A stretch of 64,000 nt of DNA from Patescibacteria group bacterium. GTDB lineage: Bacteria > Patescibacteriota > Saccharimonadia > Saccharimonadales > JAUPVS01. Location of the stretch: assembly GCA_030916945.1 (NCBI GenBank), contig JAUPVS010000001.1, forward strand, positions 2,138 to 66,137. Reading direction: 5' to 3'. Under the pieces are notes generated by a model that saw only the letters and a program-made list of their open reading frames with translations, did no database searches and was not told the origin of the DNA. The translations under genes and the position numbers were made by a program. Position 1 is the first letter of the stretch, and every line of letters starts with the position of its first letter. Shown here piece after piece: positions 6,137 to 55,535 of this stretch.

Positions 6137-6898
6137 ATGGCAAAGCTGCCGACTAAACGGTTCAAGAAAATTCGTCCCAAAAATGGTGTGGCGCACGCCC
6201 TCCATCTATTGTTGACGTTACTACTGCCGATTTTGGTTTATGTGCTGGTCCGCATCCATTTTGCCCAGCTTGCCTTATTGCTTATTTTGCTTAGTAAATG
6301 GCGCATGTGGGCAGTCAAGCCGCGCCACTGGCCAGCCAACATCCGTGCCAACGCCATCGATATTATTGTCGGAGTTTCGCTGTTGGTGTTTATGATTCAA
6401 GCCGACTCTCAGCTGTTCCAGCTTATCTGGGCGGCTGTCTATGCCGTCTGGTTACTGTTTATTAAGCCGGGATCGCAGGTTATATCGGTATCGGCTCAGG
6501 CTTTAATTGGGCAGTTCGTTGGTCTAACAGCTTTATTCTTGCGCTATGGCGACATGAATGCCCTTGGTCTAATTGTTGCCAGCTGGGCAATCTGCTACCT
6601 GGCGGCAAGGCACTTTTTGGCCAGTTTTGACGAGCCGCAAACCCGCTTCTTCTCTTACCTGTGGGGCTATTTTGGTGCCGCCTTGGTTTGGATATTGAGC
6701 CACTGGCTACTATTCTATGGTCCAATCGCCCAACCAACCTTATTGATATCGGTAATTGGTTTTGGTTTGGCTACCCTGTACTATCTACACGAAACCGACC
6801 GGCTGTCGACATTTTTCCAGCGGCAGATACTGTTTATTATGTTGGCAATTGTCGTGATACTCATTGTTTTCTCAGACTGGGGTGATAAAACTGTCTAA
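6137..6898 (+). CDS. Hypothetical polytopic membrane protein
   Basis: 253 aa with about 7 hydrophobic segments; 9 nt after the LCP gene. No motif recognised. Confidence 0.6.
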   Translation: MAKLPTKRFKKIRPKNGVAHALHLLLTLLLPILVYVLVRIHFAQLALLLILLSKWRMWAVKPRHWPANIRANAIDIIVGVSLLVFMIQADSQLFQLIWAAVYAVWLLFIKPGSQVISVSAQALIGQFVGLTALFLRYGDMNALGLIVASWAICYLAARHFLASFDEPQTRFFSYLWGYFGAALVWILSHWLLFYGPIAQPTLLISVIGFGLATLYYLHETDRLSTFFQRQILFIMLAIVVILIVFSDWGDKTV

Positions 6899-17588: not shown

Positions 17589-19121
17589 ATGCAGTGGCTA
17601 CAAGCACTCGTTGATGAGTTAATTACCAAACACCCGGATGGTGAGATTCTGGTGTCGTCTGGTGCTTCGCCGTCGGGCACTTACCATGTTGGCCATCTGC
17701 GCGAAATTATTACCTGCGACGCTATTCTACTGGAACTACGCCGCCGTGGCCGCCAAGCCCGCCATGTGCACTTTGCCGACGACCTTGATGGCCTACGTAA
17801 AATACCGGGCAACATACCGGCCGAGTACGAAAAGTATTTGGGCAAGCCGCTCTGTGATATTCCGGCCCCTGATGGCACCGACCGTAGCTATGCCGACTAT
17901 TTTCTGGATGACTTTATTGCCAGTGCCCAGGCCCTGGGCATTGAAATGGAAGTTGTATACAGCCATCAAAAGTATCGCCAAGGCTTCTTTGTGCCGGCTA
18001 TCGAGCGCTGTCTTGAACACATGGCTGCCGCCAAACAGACCCTCGAAACCGTGGCTGGACGCCAGCTTGATGAACACTGGTCACCGATTCAAATTATGGA
18101 AGACGGCTACCTTAAAAACCGACCGTTTCTGAGCATCGATACTAAAGCCAAAACTCTCAGCTACCAAGATAAAGAGGGGAAGACCCAAACCGTGGCTTAC
18201 GATAAGGGCGCTGTTAAGTTGGATTGGCGTCTAGATTGGCCCGGCCGCTGGTGGCTGCTGGGTGTTAATGCCGAGCCATTTGGTCGTGACCACGCCACTA
18301 AGGGTGGTTCTTTCGACACCGGCGTTGGCATGATGGAACAAATTTATAAGGCCGATCCGCCGATTCCCGTGCCGTATGATTTTGTGAACCTAGCTGGTGA
18401 TAATAAAAAGATGAGCGCCAGCCGGGGAACCGGTATTCAAGCTACAGAAATTATTAAGGTGTTACCAGCCGAGGTGACGCGCTTTTTTATGTTGCGCTAC
18501 GCTCCAGCCAAACGCCTCTACTTTGACCAAACTGACGGCACCATTAAACTGGTCGACGAATATGCTGCACTCAGTAGCCAGCCCGAGCTGTCCGAGTCGG
18601 ACCAGCAGCTGCTGTATGTTTGCAGTCGCGGCAGCCAAGAAAAAACCGTTAGCCGGGTGCCATTTTCTCACCTAGTTGCCAGTTACCAGGCAGCCCTAAA
18701 AGACGCCGAAAAGACTCTCCAAATCCTGGGCCGTACCGAATACAGCCAGGTTGTAAAGGAAGACCGCGACATTATTATTAGGGAACTGGCTTTTATCCAC
18801 GAGTGGCTTAAGCTGTGGGCTCCCGAAGACGTTAAGTTTGAACCATTACAAACCCTAGAGGTAGCTTCATTGTCCGTTGCCCAGAAAACCTATCTGCAGC
18901 AGTTGGGTCAGAAAGTCGCCGATGCTCCTCAAGACGCCGATGGCGCGTGGTTCCACCAAGCCATCTACGAATTTAAAGACCAGACCGACCTAGCACCTAA
19001 AGAGCTATTCACCACACTCTACCAAGTCTTAATCGGCAAAGACTCCGGACCGCGCGCTGGCTGGTTCTTGAGTATGCTACCGCGCGACTGGTTGGTAAAG
19101 CGCCTTAAGCTCGAAGCCTAA
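17589..19121 (+). CDS. lysK: Lysyl-tRNA synthetase, class I
   Basis: SGTYHVGHLRE (HIGH-type) and KMSASRG (KMSKS-type) motifs; about 510 aa, typical of class-I LysRS. Confidence 0.85.
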   Translation: MQWLQALVDELITKHPDGEILVSSGASPSGTYHVGHLREIITCDAILLELRRRGRQARHVHFADDLDGLRKIPGNIPAEYEKYLGKPLCDIPAPDGTDRSYADYFLDDFIASAQALGIEMEVVYSHQKYRQGFFVPAIERCLEHMAAAKQTLETVAGRQLDEHWSPIQIMEDGYLKNRPFLSIDTKAKTLSYQDKEGKTQTVAYDKGAVKLDWRLDWPGRWWLLGVNAEPFGRDHATKGGSFDTGVGMMEQIYKADPPIPVPYDFVNLAGDNKKMSASRGTGIQATEIIKVLPAEVTRFFMLRYAPAKRLYFDQTDGTIKLVDEYAALSSQPELSESDQQLLYVCSRGSQEKTVSRVPFSHLVASYQAALKDAEKTLQILGRTEYSQVVKEDRDIIIRELAFIHEWLKLWAPEDVKFEPLQTLEVASLSVAQKTYLQQLGQKVADAPQDADGAWFHQAIYEFKDQTDLAPKELFTTLYQVLIGKDSGPRAGWFLSMLPRDWLVKRLKLEA

Positions 19122-20546: not shown

Positions 20547-21032
20547 ATGGAACAAGCAATTTTTGCGGCCGGCTGCTTTTGGGGAGTTCAGTACTATTTT
20601 GACCAAATCCCCGGTGTTACTAAAACCACAGCTGGCTATACCGGCGGACACACCCAAGACCCCACCTACGAACAGGTCTGCACCCACACCACCGGCCATG
20701 CCGAAGCCGTCCAGGTCACCTTTGACTCAGCCAAGGTAAGCTACCAAACGCTACTGCAGCACTTCTTTAGAATGCACGACCCGACCCAGCTTAATCGCCA
20801 AGGTCCCGATGTTGGCGATAGCTATCGCAGTGCCATTTTCTACCTGGATAAAACTCAAGAAAAGGCGGCCCAGGCAGCCAAGCTGGATGCCCAAAACAAC
20901 TGGACTGAACCAATTGTCACCCAAATAGTGCCGGCTGGCCCGTTTTATCCGGCCGAAGACTATCATCAGAAGTTTGCCGAGCGCACCGGCAGGGGAATGT
21001 GCCATATTCCATACCAACCGCTGGAGACTTAG
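20547..21032 (+). CDS. msrA: Peptide methionine (S)-sulfoxide reductase MsrA
   Basis: AAGCFWGVQ active-site motif, GYTGG, HDPT, YHQ. Confidence 0.95.
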
Positions 21033-21085
21033 GATACCTTAAAATAAACTTGCAAAATTAACCCGTTTATGCTAGTATAACACCT

Positions 21086-22588
21086 ATGACAAATCTACGT
21101 TTTCCTTCAGCAGGGCCTGGCCCCGAAGCCGGTCCAGGTTCGCCTACTGTAAATTGGGACGAAGTTCAGATGCCCAAAGCGCCACCAGTACAAGCTGGTG
21201 CAGAGCCTGTCTCGACTGAGCAGACTCAAGAACAAGGTGAACCCATTTACTTGGTTGACGGTATTGGTATTGATATAAACGATGGTGTTGAAGTTAAAGC
21301 TCTTGCTGAAATTCTTGGCGTAACCCCCGAAGAGGTAAAAGACAGGTTAGAACAGGGTCTTCAGGCTGGTGAGCGAGGTGCGACCTTATGGAATCGTCTG
21401 ACTCCAGAGGCTCAAGAACGCCATCGCGCAGAAGCGAAAGCCGCAGCGAAATCTGCTGATGTAGACGAATCTACTCCAGAACCACTTTTGACCCGGTCTG
21501 TACTAACTCCGCCAGCTGCCCCTGCGCCGGCCCGCGATGTAAAGATGCGCGTGGTAGGTGCTAATGACGGCGAGACCCAGGTAATTCCAGCTGTCCCAAG
21601 CCACCCTGCAAAACGCGTAGTTAAGAAAACTCACCGCCCAGCGGCTACTCCAGCTACACCTGCAACACCAGATCTTGCTAAGCCAACTGACGGTCAAGCC
21701 ACCGGTACCGAAGCACCAAAGTTCTATAAACGAACCGACAACAAAGCCGCCGAAAAATTCTTCACCAAAAAGAAGCATCACGACAAGGTTCTCACCGAAG
21801 AGCAGTTTAGGGAATTCTTTGGTGACGATGCCATAGCTGCAGACCCTGATCTTAAAGCCGAATACCAATCTGTTCATCCGGTCTATCTGTACAGCCCAGA
21901 GGAACGATCGATGGGTTCTTATAGAGCCATACATGAGCGTGATAATGTGCTTGGTTGGCGTCGTGATACGATCCGCGATGAACATGGTAATAAGATAAAA
22001 TTACCACCAAGCCTAGTACCAGAAGACAGTATCACTCCCGATATTGATAATACGCCGGTAGTACGTCGCCGCAAACGTGACGTTTCTCCGACTGAACCAG
22101 CCGCCGAAATCCCCAAGATTCTAAGAGACGACGATGAACCAGCCGCCGAACCAGCGGAAGCAAAAGCTTCTGTTAGCGACACCCCAGAACCATTAGGCAG
22201 AGAAGATGTTTATGCCTACTTCGCCCAAAAAGAAAAAGAACTTGCCCAAAAAGAAGAAGAATTCCTGGCAAGAATGGAATCATTATTCGACTCAAAGATG
22301 GCCACATTTGATAGCCAGGTTGAAGCAGAAGTCCAACGCCGATTAGCTGAGCTTGGCGTACAAGTTGCTGGCAATCCGCAGGTAGCTCCTGAGGTAACTG
22401 CTGCCCAGGCAGTTGTTGAACAGACTGCTGGCGCAGAAAACGATGCTGATTCTGCAGAGACGACCGCGGCAAGTAAAGCTACAGAAAAACGCCGTCGGCA
22501 ACTAGTACGAGCTGCTAAAGTCGCTGGTGTTGCCGCCATTGCCGGTATGGGTGTGGCCGTAGCCGCTGTTCGTCAGCACAACCGCTAA
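21086..22588 (+). CDS. Hypothetical tail-anchored, largely disordered Pro/Ala/Glu-rich protein
   Basis: 500 aa; single C-terminal TM (VAGVAAIAGMGVAVAAV) preceded by KRRRQLVRAAK; coiled-coil segment near residue 380; atypical codon usage (6 AGR and 4 ATA codons in frame). Confidence 0.65.
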   Translation: MTNLRFPSAGPGPEAGPGSPTVNWDEVQMPKAPPVQAGAEPVSTEQTQEQGEPIYLVDGIGIDINDGVEVKALAEILGVTPEEVKDRLEQGLQAGERGATLWNRLTPEAQERHRAEAKAAAKSADVDESTPEPLLTRSVLTPPAAPAPARDVKMRVVGANDGETQVIPAVPSHPAKRVVKKTHRPAATPATPATPDLAKPTDGQATGTEAPKFYKRTDNKAAEKFFTKKKHHDKVLTEEQFREFFGDDAIAADPDLKAEYQSVHPVYLYSPEERSMGSYRAIHERDNVLGWRRDTIRDEHGNKIKLPPSLVPEDSITPDIDNTPVVRRRKRDVSPTEPAAEIPKILRDDDEPAAEPAEAKASVSDTPEPLGREDVYAYFAQKEKELAQKEEEFLARMESLFDSKMATFDSQVEAEVQRRLAELGVQVAGNPQVAPEVTAAQAVVEQTAGAENDADSAETTAASKATEKRRRQLVRAAKVAGVAAIAGMGVAVAAVRQHNR

Positions 22589-22618
22589 ATCTTCTCTGTT
22601 TTATGCTAAAGTAGAGGC

Positions 22619-23452
22619 ATGGCAAAAAAATCTACAACCAAGACAGTAAAGACCACTAAGAAAACGTCAAAAAAATCTAAAATCAGTTTGGCCAGTTTAA
22701 ACAGCTGGAACCTGGTGATGGCTGGTCTGCATTTTGTGCAAGGTGCGGCCGTGGTTCTACTTAGCCAAAGTTCAACTTTGCCAGTGACCACCAACTATTT
22801 GACGCTGGACACGCTGGCGTCGCAAAGTGGTAATCCGGTTCTGGTGTCAGCTAGCCGGCACCTGTTTGATGTTAATCTGGCTTACTTAGTGGCGGCCTTC
22901 TTCTTTATGTCAGCTATTGCGCACCTAGTGATTGCAACAGTTTATCGAAAAACTTACGAAGCCGACCTTAAGAAGGGGATCAACAAAGCCCGTTGGTTTG
23001 AGTACGGTATTAGTGCCAGTACCATGATGGTGGCGATCGCCATGTTGAGTGGCGTTTATGATTTGTCTAGCTTGCTGATGATCTTTGCGCTGGACTTCAT
23101 CATGAATATGATGGGCTTGGTCATGGAGATTCACAACCAGACGACTAAAAAGACTAGCTGGCTTAGCTACAACATTGGTTGTTTGGCCGGCATAGTGCCC
23201 TGGGCGGTCTTTGGTATTTATGTGGCTGGCGCTTCGGCCTATGGTAGTGGTCAGATCCCGAGCTTTGTCTATTGGATATACCTAAGCATGTTCCTATTCT
23301 TTATGAGCTTTGCGGTCAATATGTATCTGCAATACAAAAAGGTAGGCAAGTGGGCCGACTATTTGTATGGCGAGCGAGTCTATATGATTTTGAGTTTGGT
23401 GGCCAAATCAGCCTTGGCCTGGCAGGTATTCTTTGGGACGCTTCGACCTTAA
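22619..23452 (+). CDS. Heliorhodopsin
   Basis: 277 aa, 7 TM. Colinear by eye with heliorhodopsin 48C12: RWFEY (counter-ion Glu, E128), GCLAGIVPW, FLFF, LQYKK.GKW, GERVYMILSLVAKSALAWQVFFGTL (Schiff-base Lys K263, codon 23405-23407), conserved His H38 and H102. Confidence 0.85.
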   Translation: MAKKSTTKTVKTTKKTSKKSKISLASLNSWNLVMAGLHFVQGAAVVLLSQSSTLPVTTNYLTLDTLASQSGNPVLVSASRHLFDVNLAYLVAAFFFMSAIAHLVIATVYRKTYEADLKKGINKARWFEYGISASTMMVAIAMLSGVYDLSSLLMIFALDFIMNMMGLVMEIHNQTTKKTSWLSYNIGCLAGIVPWAVFGIYVAGASAYGSGQIPSFVYWIYLSMFLFFMSFAVNMYLQYKKVGKWADYLYGERVYMILSLVAKSALAWQVFFGTLRP

Positions 23453-23461
23453 GGCAGGCTC

Positions 23462-24103
23462 ATGAAGCATGTCATCTTCGACTTTGACGGCACGCTAGTA
23501 GATAGCCTGCCGCTGGCCGTCAGCATTGCTGGCCAGATGGTGCCGGGTTTAGACCTGAGCGACCAAGAGTTGGCCAAATTCCGCGAGATGCCGGCCCGCG
23601 AGATCATTAAATACAGTGGCGTGCCATACTGGCAGCTGTTGCGTTTAATGATTAAAGGCAAGAAGTTACTGGGCGCGCGGTTGGATGAGCTCAAGGCTTT
23701 TCCGGGCATGGATGCTGTGGTCAAAACTCTGCACGACCAAGGTTTCCAGATTTCGGTGGTCAGTTCTAACAGCGAAGACAACATCCGCAAGGTGCTCGGT
23801 CGTGAAAAAATCGAGCAATATGTTGATCGAGTTTACGGCAATGTTGGTTTGTTCAGTAAATCGCGTGTCTTTAAGGTTGTCTTAAAAGACCAGAAGGCTA
23901 AAGTTAACGATGCCATTTATATCGGTGACGAGGTGCGCGACATCGAGGCCGCTCATAAGAGTCGAATTGCGGTCGTGGCTGTGACGTGGGGCTACAACGG
24001 CGAAACCATTCTCAAGAAGTACCAGCCCGATTACGTGGCCCACACGCCCAAGGAACTGGTTACTATCTTGACCAAGCAAGCCTTTGGGGGCGACCAAGGG
24101 TGA
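23462..24103 (+). CDS. HAD-superfamily phosphatase (phosphoglycolate-phosphatase-like)
   Basis: DFDGTLVDS motif I, SSN motif II, GDEVRD motif IV; 9 nt after the heliorhodopsin stop. Confidence 0.8.
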   Translation: MKHVIFDFDGTLVDSLPLAVSIAGQMVPGLDLSDQELAKFREMPAREIIKYSGVPYWQLLRLMIKGKKLLGARLDELKAFPGMDAVVKTLHDQGFQISVVSSNSEDNIRKVLGREKIEQYVDRVYGNVGLFSKSRVFKVVLKDQKAKVNDAIYIGDEVRDIEAAHKSRIAVVAVTWGYNGETILKKYQPDYVAHTPKELVTILTKQAFGGDQG

Positions 24104-31382: not shown

Positions 31383-31432
31383 TCATGCTTATGGTATGAT
31401 ACGAATAATGTAACTAAGCGAGAACTTAAACA

Positions 31433-32107
31433 ATGCCTCCACAAGAACCAACTAATGACCCAGTACCAACCACAACGCCGCCGCCAACTGACACGCCAGT
31501 TGATAGTGGGACTCCTATAAATGTCACTAGCACTGACACGCCAGCCCCTGACGACACACCGTCATTTGATAGCTCACCAGCTACTACGCCAACCGACAGT
31601 TTTTCAGCACCATCATCGGCTGAGACATCACCAATAACCGAAACCATGCCAGTTGATAGCCCGGTTACGCCAGCCATGCCTAGCGATCCAACCATGGCCG
31701 GCGTTAATGATACGGTTGGATTCGGCACTGAGCCAAGTAGTCTACCGACTACGCCAACCCCTCCAACCGACAGCTTTTCGACACCAGCGCCAGCCGGCGT
31801 AGGTGAGGCCCCAACAGCTGATGCTTACGGCGAAGGTTCAATGGGCGCGGCCACGGCAACGCCGTCGGCTCTCCCTAGCGACCCAGCCAACCCAGTGCCA
31901 GCCCCTGGCGCTAACGCCGGTATGCCGCTTCATCCTATGCATGCCGAAAAAGGTGGTAAAAAAGGCTTGATGATTGCCTTGATCGCCGGAGTTCTGATTA
32001 TCGCCGTAATGCTTCTGGCGGTCGTTGTACTCGGCGGCTCTTCTTCCGAAACAGATGCCACTACTACCGAAACAACCGAGTCTAGCACTACAACTACCCA
32101 AGAGTAG
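31433..32107 (+). CDS. Hypothetical Pro/Thr/Ser-rich tail-anchored protein
   Basis: 224 aa of low-complexity PT-rich sequence; KGGKKG + TM (LMIALIAGVLIIAVMLLAVVVLGG) + short Ser/Thr/Glu tail. Confidence 0.6.
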   Translation: MPPQEPTNDPVPTTTPPPTDTPVDSGTPINVTSTDTPAPDDTPSFDSSPATTPTDSFSAPSSAETSPITETMPVDSPVTPAMPSDPTMAGVNDTVGFGTEPSSLPTTPTPPTDSFSTPAPAGVGEAPTADAYGEGSMGAATATPSALPSDPANPVPAPGANAGMPLHPMHAEKGGKKGLMIALIAGVLIIAVMLLAVVVLGGSSSETDATTTETTESSTTTTQE

Positions 32108-33628: not shown

Positions 33629-33699
33629 AACAAACCCAGCATCACTTCGTGCTGCTTGCGAATTATAAATTCGCACAGCTTTCGCTGCCGGGGTTTGTT
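33629..33699 (+). other. Compact four-way-junction (cloverleaf-like) candidate RNA structure
   Basis: P1 33629-33637/33691-33699 (9 bp); P2 33638-41/33650-53; P3 33657-64/33668-75 (8 bp); P4 33676-79/33684-87. Paired by eye, not folded computationally. Confidence 0.35.
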
Positions 33700-33711
33700 A
33701 TAATAATGCTA

Positions 33712-50491: not shown

Positions 50492-51184
50492 GTGGATGTT
50501 CCAGACCCAAGGCCAGACCAAGACCCATTCGAGGCTATAACTAAGGCTAGCCCCGAGGCTATTCGTTTGTGCGAGTATGTTTTTGCTTCGGCTGCCGATG
50601 ATTTAGCCGAACAGAACTTTAGGGAATCCAAGGACTTAAAGCGCGTCGTTGGCGAGAAGACCTTTCATTATGAAGACGACTCTTCGCTGACGATACTTTT
50701 TAGTGCCGCCAAGTTTAAAGAAGCAGACGAAGAGGAAGGTGACGCCTCTATGCGGTATATCAAATATACGGTGGAGATTACTCGTCAACGACCACGTGAA
50801 GACCAAGCCTACTGGCCTGAGTCGACAGGCAGGTGGAGCAGCGATGACGAAGACGAAGCTGACGATGATGACAGAGTTTTCGAAACCACCACGTCAGCCG
50901 AACATGGTGATGTCTGCCAAGAAGTCCACCGTTTTTATATAGACGATGAGGACTACATCCCGGTAAGCGAACTAATCTTTCAGTATATTGACGACAGAGG
51001 TGTGATTTTAGAAGAAATTGATGCCTTTGGTGCTTTTTCGGTCAGAGAACAGCAACTTAGCGCTAACGAAGCTGACGATGACTCCTTGCACGAGTTCGAA
51101 GAATGGCTGTCGAGGTCGTTTAGCCAAGAAGAACAGGTCAAGATATACTCTGTTCTGGAACGATTAAAAATAAATGTTGCGTAG
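50492..51184 (+). CDS. Hypothetical highly acidic protein (paralog 1)
   Basis: 230 aa with long Asp/Glu runs; GTG start; 7 AGR and 5 ATA codons. C-terminal helix FSQEEQVKIYSVLERLKI resembles that of the next gene. Confidence 0.6.
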   Translation: MDVPDPRPDQDPFEAITKASPEAIRLCEYVFASAADDLAEQNFRESKDLKRVVGEKTFHYEDDSSLTILFSAAKFKEADEEEGDASMRYIKYTVEITRQRPREDQAYWPESTGRWSSDDEDEADDDDRVFETTTSAEHGDVCQEVHRFYIDDEDYIPVSELIFQYIDDRGVILEEIDAFGAFSVREQQLSANEADDDSLHEFEEWLSRSFSQEEQVKIYSVLERLKINVA

Positions 51185-51197
51185 CTACCGAAACCAC

Positions 51198-51239
51198 AAA
51201 ACCCTTGTGCTTGCAAAAACGTCCGAGCTTTGACAGGCT
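51198..51239 (+). repeat. 42-nt conserved intergenic motif, copy 2
   Basis: aaaacccttgtgcttgcaaaaacgtccgagctttgacaggct. All 4 differences from copy 1 fall in the predicted hairpin loop. Confidence 0.8.
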
Positions 51240-51245
51240 TACTTT

Positions 51246-51956
51246 ATGGCTATTCCAGACGAACACTTTTTACCCGGTCCCGGTGTAGACCCTGATACAG
51301 AGGTGTACCCAAGTGTTGTAAAGGGCTTTATGAGGCATACGATTTGGCCAGCCGTCAACACTTTATGGGGTGGCGATTTCCTGACGGATTCACTGCCGGA
51401 TGAGTATTTGTCAATTGAGCGCACGGTAGTGGACCGAGTCAGTCGTGAGCCCAGCGCCATTTATCGACTGTTGGCAAATTGTGGCCTGGATGCTGACCTA
51501 GAAAGTGATGAAGAGATAGTAGTTCGCTCAGCTCAAATATTTGTGGTTGAGCACGTACCCGACGCCACAGCCGGACTATTGGTAGATATTAACCGACAAT
51601 ACAAAGCTCTGGATAGGAAATCTGGCTTTCCGCTTGAACCGGTCGATGGCCTGTCGGCTTGGCTAAATAAAGAGTACACCTTTAGCGACGCCAAAGACCA
51701 GCCATTTCATGTCATGCCGTTTCTGGAGCTCCGCGCCAGTGATGATTTAGAGACACTCTGGGACCAAGAAACCCAAGATGAATTGCGGATTGACAGCCTT
51801 GAAGCCAAGGCCAAGTCGGCGGACCAAGAAGACCCCGAGCGACAGGATGAAGAGTACCTGTTGTTTATGCAATTCGAAGACGAGCTGCCACCAATCTTTA
51901 CAACCAAAGATTTGCGAGCGGTGTGCACGGCACTCGAAACTCTAAAACTATTGTAG
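51246..51956 (+). CDS. Hypothetical highly acidic protein (paralog 2)
   Basis: 236 aa, Asp/Glu rich; C-terminal FTTKDLRAVCTALETLKL aligns without gaps to the paralog 1 tail. Confidence 0.6.
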   Translation: MAIPDEHFLPGPGVDPDTEVYPSVVKGFMRHTIWPAVNTLWGGDFLTDSLPDEYLSIERTVVDRVSREPSAIYRLLANCGLDADLESDEEIVVRSAQIFVVEHVPDATAGLLVDINRQYKALDRKSGFPLEPVDGLSAWLNKEYTFSDAKDQPFHVMPFLELRASDDLETLWDQETQDELRIDSLEAKAKSADQEDPERQDEEYLLFMQFEDELPPIFTTKDLRAVCTALETLKLL

Positions 51957-51979
51957 TAGGTAGTATCATACATATCAGT

Positions 51980-52420
51980 ATGCCGACCATCTACGATGAA
52001 TTTACGCCTGATCTCACGCCCCAGCAGATGCTGGAGCTGGGTGTGTTTGGTGGCGCTTACTTTAATGAAGAAGAACGGGCCGAGTTTCCGCCAGAATGGT
52101 TTGCCAAAGCCCATCTGAGTACCGAAGGTCCGACCAAAGACTGTAACTACTTTGGGGTAATGGCCAGCCAGTCCCACCAAGAATGGGCCGAGAAGGGCTG
52201 GTTGAGCCAAGAAGATCCCTTGGGCTGGTTCCAGTGGTATTGTCGCTACACCATGGGTCGTCGACTGCCCCAAGAAGACGAACGCCAAATTAAACGCTGG
52301 AAGGCGATGCGTCGCCATGTTGGGCAAATTACAAAGGCATGTCACCCCGGTGATGCCACTTGTCACACCAAGCAACGGCAGGCCTTGCTGCACTGGGCTT
52401 ACGACAGCCGCCAGCTCTAG
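51980..52420 (+). CDS. Conserved-looking hypothetical protein
   Basis: 146 aa from ATG 51980; GVFGGAYF and GWFQWYCRYTMGRRLPQEDERQIKRW segments look like a conserved domain that I cannot name. The ORF track start 51923 overlaps the previous gene. Confidence 0.55.
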   Translation: MPTIYDEFTPDLTPQQMLELGVFGGAYFNEEERAEFPPEWFAKAHLSTEGPTKDCNYFGVMASQSHQEWAEKGWLSQEDPLGWFQWYCRYTMGRRLPQEDERQIKRWKAMRRHVGQITKACHPGDATCHTKQRQALLHWAYDSRQL

Positions 52421-53073
52421 CTACTAAGCGTGGCAACGGCGCGAGCCGCCACTAAGGCGATGGTTGCCAAAGACGCTAGGGCTTGAATGGTCATGAGTAG
52501 CTTGGCACGGTAGGTGATTGGGTAGGCATCGGTTGGGCTAAAAGCCGTGGCATTGGTAATCGACACATATAAGTAGTCAAAGAAGGTTGGATTCCAAGCG
52601 AATTGTTTAGTGACGGCTGGTGGCAGGGTTTGTTGCGGAAAAATGAAGTCGCGTTTTTCGTCGGGTTTACCGTCGGCAGTGTCTTCATCTATTTCCCAAT
52701 ACAGCAAGCCAAAAACAATAATGTTGGTGGCAAAGATAATTAATGCCGAGATGATCAGATCGTGTCCGCTAGTTGAGCCGTTAATTAGGGCATGACTGAC
52801 CAGTATTAACGATACGATGTTGGTAACGGTGATCATGGCTAGTAGCACCAACGACAAAAAGCGGCGGATAACCTGGCGGTTGTGATGTTTGTTGCTAACC
52901 CGGGCGGGTAGGCTGACAGCAATTAAAAGTAGCAACTCTAACCCAGCCAGAATATTGCGCGGCCCAACTACGTAGTCTTTGTTAAGGAATAGTTGCACGG
53001 CGATGGCAATACCAATGGCCAGCTGGACGTGCCAGATTGGTTCGGTTTTGCGGTGAATACGGGCCAGTTTCAT
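52417..53073 (-). CDS. DUF1345-like integral membrane protein
   Basis: About 6 TM; C-terminal FFDYLYVSITNATAFSPTD motif. Start set at ATG 53073, 7 nt after TATAAT; the 316-aa ORF extension overlaps the alkD-like gene. Confidence 0.6.
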   Translation of the reverse strand: MKLARIHRKTEPIWHVQLAIGIAIAVQLFLNKDYVVGPRNILAGLELLLLIAVSLPARVSNKHHNRQVIRRFLSLVLLAMITVTNIVSLILVSHALINGSTSGHDLIISALIIFATNIIVFGLLYWEIDEDTADGKPDEKRDFIFPQQTLPPAVTKQFAWNPTFFDYLYVSITNATAFSPTDAYPITYRAKLLMTIQALASLATIALVAARAVATLSS

Positions 53074-53080
53074 CATAAGC

Positions 53081-53095
53081 ATTATAGCGTACAAT
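53081..53095. promoter_or_regulatory. Back-to-back divergent -10 boxes
   Basis: Minus-strand TATAAT (53086-53081) and plus-strand TACAAT (53090-53095) are 3 bp apart. The start codons at 53073 (-) and 53102 (+) have only 28 bp between them. Confidence 0.55.
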
Positions 53096-53101
53096 AGCTG
53101 C

Positions 53102-53821
53102 ATGACAGCCACCCAGCTTATGACCGAACTGGACAAACGCGGTGATCCGCACGCCGCCCAGTTTGCCCAGCGCTTTTTTAAAACCGGTAAAGGGCAGTAC
53201 GGCGAAGACGACATCTTTATTGGCATCACCGTTCCCGTAACTCGCAAAGTTGCCGCCGACTTCAGGGATCTACCACTTAAAGAAATCGAGCAGGTATTGG
53301 AAAGTCCCATCCACGAACACCGCCTAGCGGCCGTTATTATCATGACCGAGCAAGCCAAGCGCACCAAGGATCCGGTTCTACAAAGAGACCTCTACGAACT
53401 GTACTTACGTCGCAGCGACCGCATCAACAACTGGGACCTGGTTGATGTTAGCTGCCGCCAAGTGGTCGGTGGCTACCTGATTGACAAGCCGCGCGACCCA
53501 CTCTATAAACTGGCTCGTTCCAAAAGTTTGTGGGAACGGCGTATTGCCATGGTCAGCACTTGGCAATTTATTCGAGCTGGCCAGCTGGCCGACACTTTTG
53601 CAATCGCCGAAATCCTGTTGGGCGACCAGCATGACCTGATGCACAAGGCAGTTGGTTGGATGCTACGCGAAGCTGGCAAAAAGAACCAAGACGCCTTGTG
53701 TGACTTCTTGGATCAGTACGCTGCCACCATGCCGCGGACCGCTCTGCGCTACGCTCTGGAACGCCTGGCGCCCGGCGAGCGCGACTATTATATGAAGCTC
53801 CGGCCGTCTGGTGTAAAGTAA
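53102..53821 (+). CDS. DNA alkylation repair protein (AlkD/AlkC-like HEAT-repeat glycosylase family)
   Basis: 239 aa; HEHRLAAVII, NNWDLVD, WERRIAMVSTW, HKAVGWMLRE segments typical of the family. Confidence 0.75.
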   Translation: MTATQLMTELDKRGDPHAAQFAQRFFKTGKGQYGEDDIFIGITVPVTRKVAADFRDLPLKEIEQVLESPIHEHRLAAVIIMTEQAKRTKDPVLQRDLYELYLRRSDRINNWDLVDVSCRQVVGGYLIDKPRDPLYKLARSKSLWERRIAMVSTWQFIRAGQLADTFAIAEILLGDQHDLMHKAVGWMLREAGKKNQDALCDFLDQYAATMPRTALRYALERLAPGERDYYMKLRPSGVK

Positions 53822-55100: not shown

Positions 55101-55129
55101 TTGACAAATAACAAAGCTTATGCTAGTAT
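55101..55129 (+). promoter_or_regulatory. Consensus sigma70 promoter of the LysM-like gene
   Basis: TTGACA (55101-55106), 17-nt spacer, TGcTAGTAT (TAGTAT 55124-55129), 7 nt upstream of ATG 55137. Confidence 0.7.
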
Positions 55130-55136
55130 GTTGGGT

Positions 55137-55535
55137 ATGATCGCCTCACACGAAAACTCAGTCGAAACCGCCAAACAACCTAGCTCACGCGTCAGTGAAG
55201 ACGTTCGCCGTGGTCGCAAAGTCTGGAACGCAGTCTTGCTGGCTAGTGCAGTAGCAGCCGCTACTGGAGGTGTTGCCAGCCGAGTAGGTGAGATTAACGA
55301 GTCTCGCCAAACCGAAATTCCTACTGTCGAAGAAGTTCAAGACAACCCCGATGCTTTTGTGGAACGAACCGTTAAGCCGGGTGACAGCTTTGATGGCATA
55401 GCCATGGAATATACACCGAACGGCCACGACTACAAAGCTGGTGCCTATAACTTAGACAGCCAGATTGACGGCAATCTAATGGCCGGCGACAAAGTTATGG
55501 TGCCGCCAACAACTACACCTCCTGCCGAAAGATAA
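55137..55535 (+). CDS. Membrane-anchored LysM-like domain protein
   Basis: TM (VWNAVLLASAVAAATGGVA) then TVKPGDSFDGIAMEY...GDKVMVP LysM-like pattern. The upstream part of ORF 54957..55535 overlaps the GH1 gene and is rejected. Confidence 0.65.
   Translation: MIASHENSVETAKQPSSRVSEDVRRGRKVWNAVLLASAVAAATGGVASRVGEINESRQTEIPTVEEVQDNPDAFVERTVKPGDSFDGIAMEYTPNGHDYKAGAYNLDSQIDGNLMAGDKVMVPPTTTPPAER

Follow-up and report, generated by a model that had tools for sequence, protein, structure and literature searches.

Among the heliorhodopsins (HeR) of solved structure, the closest counterparts of the protein dealt with here are TaHeR from the Thermoplasmatales archaeon SG8-52-1 (PDB 6is6, 7u55 and 7clj) and 48C12, encoded on a freshwater actinobacterial fosmid (PDB 6su3 and 6uh3). 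The host of TaHeR possesses no retinal pathway. Retinal from outside is captured by the apoprotein, being taken up through a lateral opening (PMC9296517). In the candidate phyla radiation (CPR), 80 heliorhodopsins have been catalogued in Saccharimonadia, SLVAK being the commonest motif in their transmembrane helix 7 (TM7), and a link of heliorhodopsins to the mitigation of oxidative stress has been suggested (Chiriac et al. 2022; PMC9166423). Rhodopsin-bearing Saccharibacteria have been reported to lack blh, their opsins loading external retinal within seconds, and Actinobacteria hosts have been proposed as its source (Jaffe et al. 2022; PMC9296517). The subject of the present article is an HeR gene located in a stretch of 64,000 nucleotides from a Patescibacteria group bacterium (assembly GCA_030916945.1, contig JAUPVS010000001.1, positions 2,138 to 66,137 of the forward strand), the whole of which is referred to below as the window. 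The gene had already been proposed as a heliorhodopsin in a reading of the letters without database searches (hereafter the sequence-only reading).

With TaHeR the window protein shares the counter-ion, the Schiff-base lysine, the histidine pair, the SxxxK motif and the Y/C/G/F/A set of fenestration residues, as well as the lack of a retinal pathway in its surroundings. It differs in its N-terminus—short and non-basic in TaHeR, 23–26 residues with nine lysines here—in Met229 replacing N204 of TaHeR, and in its host, which is a CPR bacterium and not an archaeon. The protein 48C12 is colinear and carries the same set of motifs (equivalents of its E107 and K241); it is, however, more distant than TaHeR and also has no Lys-rich tail. 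The catalogued Saccharimonadia and other CPR heliorhodopsins (PMC9166423) resemble the window protein in clade, SLVAK motif and retinal-auxotroph lifestyle. Cytoplasmic N-terminal extensions on a heliorhodopsin core are also known from MORN-HeR and Znf-HeR, where they have been proposed as output or partner-recruiting elements (Bulzu et al. 2021; PMC8612252); those are folded domains (PF02493 repeats and a zinc ribbon), whereas the tail of the window protein is of low complexity, predicted to be disordered and without any domain match. Finally, retinal-less type-1 opsins that have lost the lysine (Rh-noK, haloarchaeal and freshwater FArhodopsins) parallel the lysine-less heliorhodopsin-like orthologues described below, but belong to a different rhodopsin family, and the window protein itself keeps the lysine.

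Identity and fold

The open reading frame (ORF; Table 1) and all the sequence strings quoted from it in the sequence-only reading are present exactly as described there, and the assignment to heliorhodopsins was borne out by the profile search which that reading had suggested. The protein matches the Pfam family PF18761 with 312.6 bits (cut-off 26.7; E = 2.1e-93), its residues 27–275 covering positions 1–242 of the 242 of the model, and the NCBIfam equivalog NF038020 'heliorhodopsin HeR' with 317.5 bits (cut-off 100) over positions 1–244 of 244. The best match among solved structures is TaHeR (6is6; E = 5e-74, 50% identity), followed by 48C12 (6su3; E = 1e-50, 40% identity); the colinearity with 48C12 that had been recognized by eye is thus valid, TaHeR being, however, the closer of the two.

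The AlphaFold2 (AF2) model, based on 47 homologues, consists of seven helices and has a mean predicted local distance difference test value (pLDDT) of 93.3 and a predicted template modelling score (pTM) of 0.87, with a predicted β-hairpin, typical of heliorhodopsins, in the first extracellular loop (ECL1) between TM1 and TM2 (strands 53–63 and 75–86). In Foldseek, the model superimposes on TaHeR with a template modelling score (TMt) of 0.93–0.94 and a root-mean-square deviation of 1.6–2.1 Å. TaHeR and 48C12 are together the best matches (TMt 0.87–0.94), type-1 rhodopsins reaching scores of ~0.5–0.6 and the first match outside heliorhodopsins having E = 6e-3 and a score of ~0.56; the likeness to type-1 rhodopsins is therefore seen only at the generic level of seven transmembrane helices. 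Membership of the type-1 family is contradicted also by the absence of any match to PF01036 at E ≤ 1, by the motif being SxxxK and not DxxxK, and by charges placing the N-terminus inside. Counted on the predicted model, 18 lysines and arginines lie on the cytoplasmic N-terminal tail and the intracellular loops (ICL1–3) versus two on the extracellular loops and the C-terminal end, a distribution consistent with the inverted topology of the family, N-terminus cytoplasmic and C-terminus outside; the cytoplasmic N-terminus had been taken for granted in the sequence-only reading.

In the NCBI database the identical protein is labelled 'MAG: hypothetical protein QG553_28 [Patescibacteria group bacterium]', and relatives at 65–94% identity carry the label 'heliorhodopsin HeR [Candidatus Saccharimonadales / Saccharibacteria bacterium]'. 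The window gene is a genuine full-length heliorhodopsin with the complete family signature.

Retinal pocket and supply of retinal

Conservation was followed in two sets of homologues, i.e. 120 close relatives and a species-level set of loci; the latter was obtained by scanning a single genome for each species, 186 of which proved to have relatives, and by analysing the best 80. Nearly all of these 80 loci (designated by L numbers) belong to Saccharibacteria, together with a few Dojka-, Woyke- and Berkelbacteria and one Thermoplasmata archaeon; since they originate from a scan with a single protein, they are biased to sequences that keep the motifs (e.g. NKARWFEY) and blind to lysine-less relatives. 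Residue equivalences were obtained from the phmmer alignment to TaHeR (6is6), the PDB chain numbering being the native one plus 6.

The pocket is intact, as previously read from the letters: E128 and K263 (codon 23405–23407, as given there) align with the counter-ion and the Schiff-base lysine of TaHeR, and H38 and H102 with its H23 and H82. The residues K263, E128, H38, H102 and S259 are invariant in all 120 close relatives and in all 80 species loci, i.e. down to ~53% identity. With regard to the lateral fenestration, for which the residues of TaHeR were taken from a preprint (10.1101/2025.11.27.691015), Y184, C188, G191, F228 and A232 of the window protein align with Y164, C168, G171, F203 and A207. 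Both G191 and F228 are found in 80 of the 80 species loci and position 184 is always aromatic (Y in 62, F in 18), so that, judged by residue content, a fenestration between TM5 and TM6 is predicted here too. An exception to the likeness is M229 (codon 23303–23305), where most heliorhodopsins have an Asn that lines the fenestration (N204 in TaHeR and N207 in 48C12); over the 80 loci this position is Asn in 54, Ser in 18 and Met in three (L012, L037 and L056), these three being the two closest relatives and one long-tail locus. The strict invariance of the pocket in its own clade, unlike the loss of K263 in distant lineages described below, suggests that the protein acquires its chromophore and makes use of it.

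All ORFs of the window were annotated with Pfam, precomputed matches serving for ~12.6–33.5 kb and our own scans for the remainder. None of them matched a crt, blh/BCD or carotenoid-oxygenase family, the matches being to housekeeping families only. The ORFs without any family are located at 6137–6898, 21086–22588, 31433–32107 and 50492–53367. The possibility that the first of them, a 253-residue protein with several transmembrane segments, is a cryptic Blh-like dioxygenase was rejected, as it has no Pfam or NCBIfam match. The lack of carotenoid and retinal genes in the 64 kb had been pointed out in the sequence-only reading, together with the conclusion that the chromophore has to come from elsewhere; the latter is supported by the rhodopsin-bearing Saccharibacteria without blh (PMC9296517). 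The novelty implied there did not stand up, because both the heliorhodopsins of Saccharimonadia (PMC9166423) and the scavenging of retinal without blh (PMC9296517) had been published; a heliorhodopsin in a streamlined genome without retinal genes is the documented state of the clade. In the searchable literature no description was found of Lys-rich tails, a leaderless promoter or the syntenic slot of Saccharimonadia heliorhodopsins, nor anything relevant on lysine-rich heliorhodopsin N-termini in general or on leaderless transcription in Saccharibacteria.

Proposed function

Based on the above results, we consider, with good confidence, that the product of the gene functions in Candidatus Saccharimonadales as a retinal-binding heliorhodopsin which uses external retinal and acts as a sensor with a generic tail. 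The cell would make no retinal itself, and all-trans-retinal—possibly also a xanthophyll—would be captured from the host or the surroundings, entering through the conserved lateral fenestration between TM5 and TM6 in the way shown for TaHeR. The resulting pigment would be a slow-cycling, non-pumping light sensor modulating a cytoplasmic or membrane partner, the contact being made through the conserved cytoplasmic face (Y113, N122, R125, W126, E170, W245, Y248 and E252). The Lys-rich N-terminus would represent a disordered cytoplasmic extension without specific fold or motif and, most likely, with two generic roles, i.e. as a strong positive-inside, anionic-lipid anchor fixing the N-in orientation and, at the level of RNA, as an A-rich, G-poor and structure-free 5′ end suiting a leaderless mRNA; its length would drift by low-complexity expansion and contraction.

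Several points weigh against this interpretation. The absence of blh and crt is based on the 64-kb window and on the literature on related genomes, and pigment formation, the photocycle and the absence of pumping are drawn from homology. Met229 could affect retinal entry or the binding of a carotenoid. One monophyletic subclade has tails of 64–76 residues with 20–26 lysines in all its seven members, which exceeds what topology or the 5′ end would need and hints at an additional function. Lastly, when the ten published heliorhodopsin neighbour groups used for assigning partners (glutamine synthetase, photolyase, ABC transporter, MerR and others; PMC11109279) were checked in the window, none of them was adjacent to the gene.

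The lysine-rich N-terminal tail

The nine lysines in the first 21 residues, emphasized already in the sequence-only reading, were confirmed as the sole 21-residue stretch with at least nine lysines among the 71 ORFs of the window (19,402 residues), the number of such stretches expected at the lysine frequency of the window (6.4%) being 0.046. The AF2 model presents residues 1–23 as coil with a pLDDT of 60–67, i.e. as predicted disorder. The tail is not peculiar to the window gene. Defined as at least 15 residues with at least 20% lysine before the Pfam core, it occurs in 100 of 114 full-length close relatives (median length 27 residues, lysine fraction 0.30, net charge +9) and in 65 of 143 diverse representatives of 50%-identity clusters. 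Its length ranges from 0 to 77 residues overall and from about 6 to 77 across species with an otherwise conserved core. In the tree of the 80 species-level cores, the basal sequences and the outgroup have tails of 6–14 residues and the subclade of the window protein 23–50, two further lineages having expanded their tails independently. These comparisons of sequences indicate a clade-wide trait of labile length.

In the coding DNA of the tail, A makes up 55% and G 12%; the minimum free energy of RNA folding of the first 70 nucleotides (22619–22688) is −0.5 kcal/mol vs −22.5 and −17.9 kcal/mol for the next two 70-nucleotide segments. An A-rich unstructured sequence following a 5′-terminal AUG favours initiation of translation, as exemplified by the downstream CA- or A-rich enhancers of Escherichia coli. 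The composition of the tail may thus be partly selected at the level of RNA.

The alternative with the most in its favour, still an unlikely one in our view, sees the tail as a dedicated polyanion-binding module, histone H1-like, tethering DNA, RNA, ribosomes, polyphosphate or an acidic protein to the membrane, perhaps in a light-dependent manner, so that it would be the output domain of the heliorhodopsin; a possible contact with a partner or nucleic acid had been put forward also in the sequence-only reading. The composition (K/T/S/A with almost no D/E and a net charge of +9 in the window protein) agrees with this idea, as do the uniformly long tails of the seven-member subclade mentioned above, which reach 76 residues with 26 lysines, and the fact that other heliorhodopsins possess genuine output domains at the N-terminus, namely MORN and Zn-ribbon (PMC8612252). 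One long tail weakly resembles PF07382 (HC2, histone H1-like) in composition, the match (E = 0.041; 14.4 bits) being below the threshold of 40 bits. Sister species with the same core, however, have tails of 6–20 residues, and beyond the initial MAKK or MATT there is no conserved motif. The Pfam search with the tail of the window protein and those of four long-tailed relatives gave nothing above threshold, and no tandem repeats were detected by Tandem Repeats Finder in the tail-coding DNA, which is a weak negative as the long-tail loci were sampled only partly. The tail, moreover, evolves much faster than the core, with frequent indels: the identity of the two is 0.66 vs 0.97 to L056 (with a six-residue indel) and 0.54 vs 0.90 to L012, and overall 0.40–0.66 in tails where the cores share 0.84–0.97. 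Because of this faster evolution, the length varying from about 6 to 77 residues and the lack of a domain family, the idea of a contact module appears weakened. The adjacent acidic protein of 500 residues was tried as an electrostatic partner of the tail and rejected: it belongs to no family, occurs in only one of the 80 other loci and is unrelated to the protein present in the same slot of L010.

Lysine-less relatives and the role of the chromophore

Among the best 150 representatives of the 50%-identity clusters nearest to the window heliorhodopsin in an exhaustive search, 72 are without the Schiff-base lysine and 62 without the counter-ion glutamate. The alignment of TM7 is unambiguous (YGERxYxxLSxVA[X]SALAWQVF), the place of the lysine being taken by Q, S, T, A, V, L, Y or further residues; another lysine near that position was found in only one sequence. 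The degree of conservation of the 70 lysine-less proteins among the 146 full-length representatives matches that of the 76 with the lysine; both classes keep Y113, N122, R125, W126, G145, L152, E170, W245, Y248, E252 and W268, located mostly in the cytoplasmic half. Two of the lysine-less proteins, the ones that could be placed (P0128 and P0149; loci L011:1439–2341 and L092:6001–6918), occupy the same syntenic slot as the window gene within housekeeping blocks of the Saccharimonadales type—the contexts being HeR-like–HAD–TrmA and the full UppS...SecA block—and are thus positional orthologues of HeR. Lys-rich tails are found in 67 representatives, 40 of which lack the Schiff-base lysine. No description of lysine-less heliorhodopsins was found in the searchable literature, which is incomplete. 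The existence of conserved lysine-less positional orthologues suggests, as far as sequences can tell, that the scaffold is valuable beyond light sensing in the phylum.

A more far-reaching view, rather doubtful at present, would be that of a Saccharimonadales scaffold with a basic, light-independent task at the cytoplasmic face of the membrane and with the tail as an effector tethering an anionic partner, light representing an optional layer. It is compatible with the lysine-less orthologues sharing the slot, the conservation and the cytoplasmic residues and often having long Lys-rich tails. If true, retinal-dependent sensing would persist only where the host provides retinal, the anionic partner would be a nucleic acid, the ribosome, polyphosphate or an anionic lipid domain, and the window protein would be the light-regulated version, its lysine-less positional orthologues being constitutive.

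That the window protein itself works free of chromophore, i.e. as a light-independent scaffold or regulator, or is on the way to becoming a lysine-less opsin, seems to us improbable. The lack of a retinal pathway in the window and in related genomes could be understood in this manner, as could the fact that about half of the nearest 50%-cluster representatives are lysine-less yet conserved, two of them in the same slot. However, the lysine, the counter-ion, the histidine pair, the serine of SxxxK and the glycine and phenylalanine of the fenestration are invariant in its own clade (120 and 80 sequences), and saccharibacterial opsins do bind external retinal within seconds (PMC9296517).

Even less is to be expected of the protein as a light-driven or light-gated ion transporter, a role very improbable despite the viral V2HeR3 transporting protons and the polar cytoplasmic cluster being conserved: the closest characterized relatives, TaHeR (50% identity) and 48C12 (40% identity), are non-pumping, and the transporting heliorhodopsins are assigned in a preprint (10.1101/2025.11.27.691015) to the viral subfamily, which is without the fenestration site that the window protein has.

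Promoter and translation start

When the upstream regions of the relatives were lined up, an extended −10 promoter-like element emerged just before the start of the gene (Table 1). The extended −10 consensus is TRTGnTATAAT. The pattern TRTGnTAnnnT followed after 6–7 nucleotides by an in-frame ATG opens the HeR ORF in 36 of the 80 species loci (6 nucleotides in 29 loci, 7 in seven), the start being always ATG, over tails from 15 to 76 residues. In the 64-kb window, the pattern with ATG occurs only four times, two of these opening HeR and the upstream gene for the 500-residue protein. The HeR promoter was missed by a generic sigma-70 scan, in which a −35 hexamer is required, and there is no well-spaced Shine-Dalgarno sequence at the HeR start, AGAGG ending one nucleotide before the ATG. 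According to the established geometry of promoters, a −10 element 6–7 nucleotides before the ATG would place the start of transcription at the ATG, so that the HeR mRNA is predicted to be leaderless and the gene appears to head its own transcription unit.

The same conserved placement argues for the ATG at 22619 as the true start and, consequently, for the translation of the Lys-rich stretch. That the tail is an annotation artefact, with the real start downstream, is scarcely credible: the poor Shine-Dalgarno context and the in-frame TTG (codon 24) and GTG/ATG (codons 33/34) would allow it, but the Pfam core begins at residue 27 and TM1 at residue 24, so that later starts truncate TM1, the extended −10 element precedes exactly this ATG in the 36 loci, and the relatives keep the frame open and begin with MAKK or MATT whatever the tail length.

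Further −10-like elements of the form TRTGnTAnnnT or TGnTAnnnT are seen in the window at 33696–33704 (before FtsE, start 33712), at 31390–31400 and at 55119–55129, the last of them preceding a 132-residue ORF (55137–55535, + strand) situated between a GH1 gene and mraZ and absent from the longest-ORF map of the window. A minority of the genes of this genome may thus be leaderless, being predicted to be transcribed from −10-like elements 6–7 nucleotides before their ATG.

Genomic context and distribution of relatives

The window is a compact, almost wholly co-directional housekeeping region with genes for IleRS, L21, ParAB, signal peptidase, LCP, HtrA, PrmC, RF1, L31, S2, Tsf, UppS, RseP, ProRS, GreA, class-I LysRS, MsrA, SerRS, HPF, SecA, RF2, FtsEX, CTP synthase, L27, XseA, GlyRS, RecO, MraZ, RsmH, FtsI and FtsW. 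The HeR gene belongs to a conserved array, UppS-RseP-CPBP-ProRS-GreA-LysRS-(Zincin_1)-(DUF427)-(DUF308)-MsrA-[variable slot]-HeR, continued after HeR by (HAD)-(TrmA-like)-RsmE-PDDEXK-SerRS-HPF-SecA. In the 80 species loci, the same-strand neighbours include PD-(D/E)XK (downstream in 48), SerRS (downstream in 41), and HAD and RsmE (downstream in 27 each). The housekeeping context, regarded in the sequence-only reading as worth following, is simply the ancestral, syntenic position of the HeR gene in about 50 of the 80 species. Scans for tRNA genes and Rfam families in the window gave nothing helpful for taxonomy or regulation.

Table 1 Features of the heliorhodopsin locus (positions in the window)
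Feature	Position	Strand	Basis and remarks
Heliorhodopsin gene, 277 residues plus stop, ATG start	22619..23452	+	ORF, profiles, structure alignment, AF2, Foldseek
Residues 1–23, Lys-rich cytoplasmic tail (9 K, no D/E)	22619..22687	+	Composition, AF2, relatives
H38 codon (= TaHeR H23)	22730..22732	+	Alignment; H conserved in all 120 close relatives and all 80 species loci
H102 codon (= TaHeR H82)	22922..22924	+	Alignment; invariant in 120/120 and 80/80
E128 codon, Schiff-base counter-ion in RWFEY (= TaHeR E108)	23000..23002	+	Alignment, relatives
TM5–TM6 stretch with lateral-fenestration residues	23168..23314	+	Alignment to TaHeR, preprint residue list
SLVAK motif, S259...K263 (= TaHeR S234...K238)	23393..23407	+	Alignment, relatives
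Extended −10 promoter-like element TATGCTAAAGT (TRTGnTAnnnT)	22602..22612	+	Ends 6 nucleotides before ATG 22619
MsrA, conserved upstream neighbour of HeR	20547..21032	+	TIGR00401, 202 bits; same-strand upstream gene in 33/80 loci
500-residue acidic protein (pI 5.2), no family	21086..22588	+	No Pfam/NCBIfam match; own extended −10 at 21068–21078
HAD-IA hydrolase (phosphoglycolate-phosphatase-like)	23462..24103	+	9 nucleotides downstream of HeR; AAGGCAGG Shine-Dalgarno-like site

Concerning the immediate neighbours, MsrA directly adjoins HeR in L007 and L009. Its recurrence is in line with the proposal of Bulzu et al. on oxidative stress, for which it is weak evidence because the whole block is syntenic. 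The HAD-IA hydrolase is probably co-transcribed with HeR and is followed by RsmE, the start of which overlaps the HAD gene. Between MsrA and HeR lies the 500-residue protein, rich in Pro, Ala and Glu and with a C-terminal hydrophobic segment; its only counterpart in the other loci is in L056, the closest relative (HeR 94% identical), the msrA–HeR slot being elsewhere empty or filled with an opposite-strand sortase or an unrelated protein of 471 residues. It is thus a lineage-specific insertion and not a conserved partner. As to the remaining family-less regions, 31433–32107 encodes a 224-residue Pro/Thr/Ser-rich protein with one transmembrane segment, and 50492–53367 covers three acidic proteins followed by a 316-residue membrane protein on the opposite strand.

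The array harbours a further variation at LysRS. The window (17589–19121) and L009 have the class I enzyme (PF01921), class-I-type matches being present in 14 of the 80 loci, and the class II enzyme (PF00152) is found at the same slot after GreA in L007 (2176–3693), L008 (825–2342), L010 and L092 (4412–5980). A non-orthologous displacement in place seems to have occurred here within Saccharimonadales.

In the tree, the archaeal heliorhodopsins—TaHeR with 50% and the Thermoplasmata sequence L090 with 54% identity to the window protein—nest among the basal CPR sequences, which suggests an inter-domain transfer. It should also be mentioned that the copy ascribed to Candidatus Methanofastidiosum (L060) is located on a contig of only 1.6 kb and begins with MNEKLKG, similar to MSEKLKG of L059 from the metagenome-assembled genome of an unclassified bacterium, both grouping with Saccharibacteria loci; judged from these sequences, the contig may be mis-binned.

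Implications

The locus is not an exceptional one, the tail, the leaderless promoter predicted for it and the lysine-less orthologues being rather useful handles. The fixed slot next to msrA, together with the gene's own conserved and presumably leaderless promoter, offers a clean transcription unit for expression studies, and the tails of 6 to 77 residues with the natural lysine-less orthologues make up a comparative series for finding out what is important in the protein in the presence and in the absence of the chromophore. The finding adds one well-supported heliorhodopsin to a catalogued clade and confirms the picture of retinal-auxotrophic CPR bacteria keeping retinal proteins.

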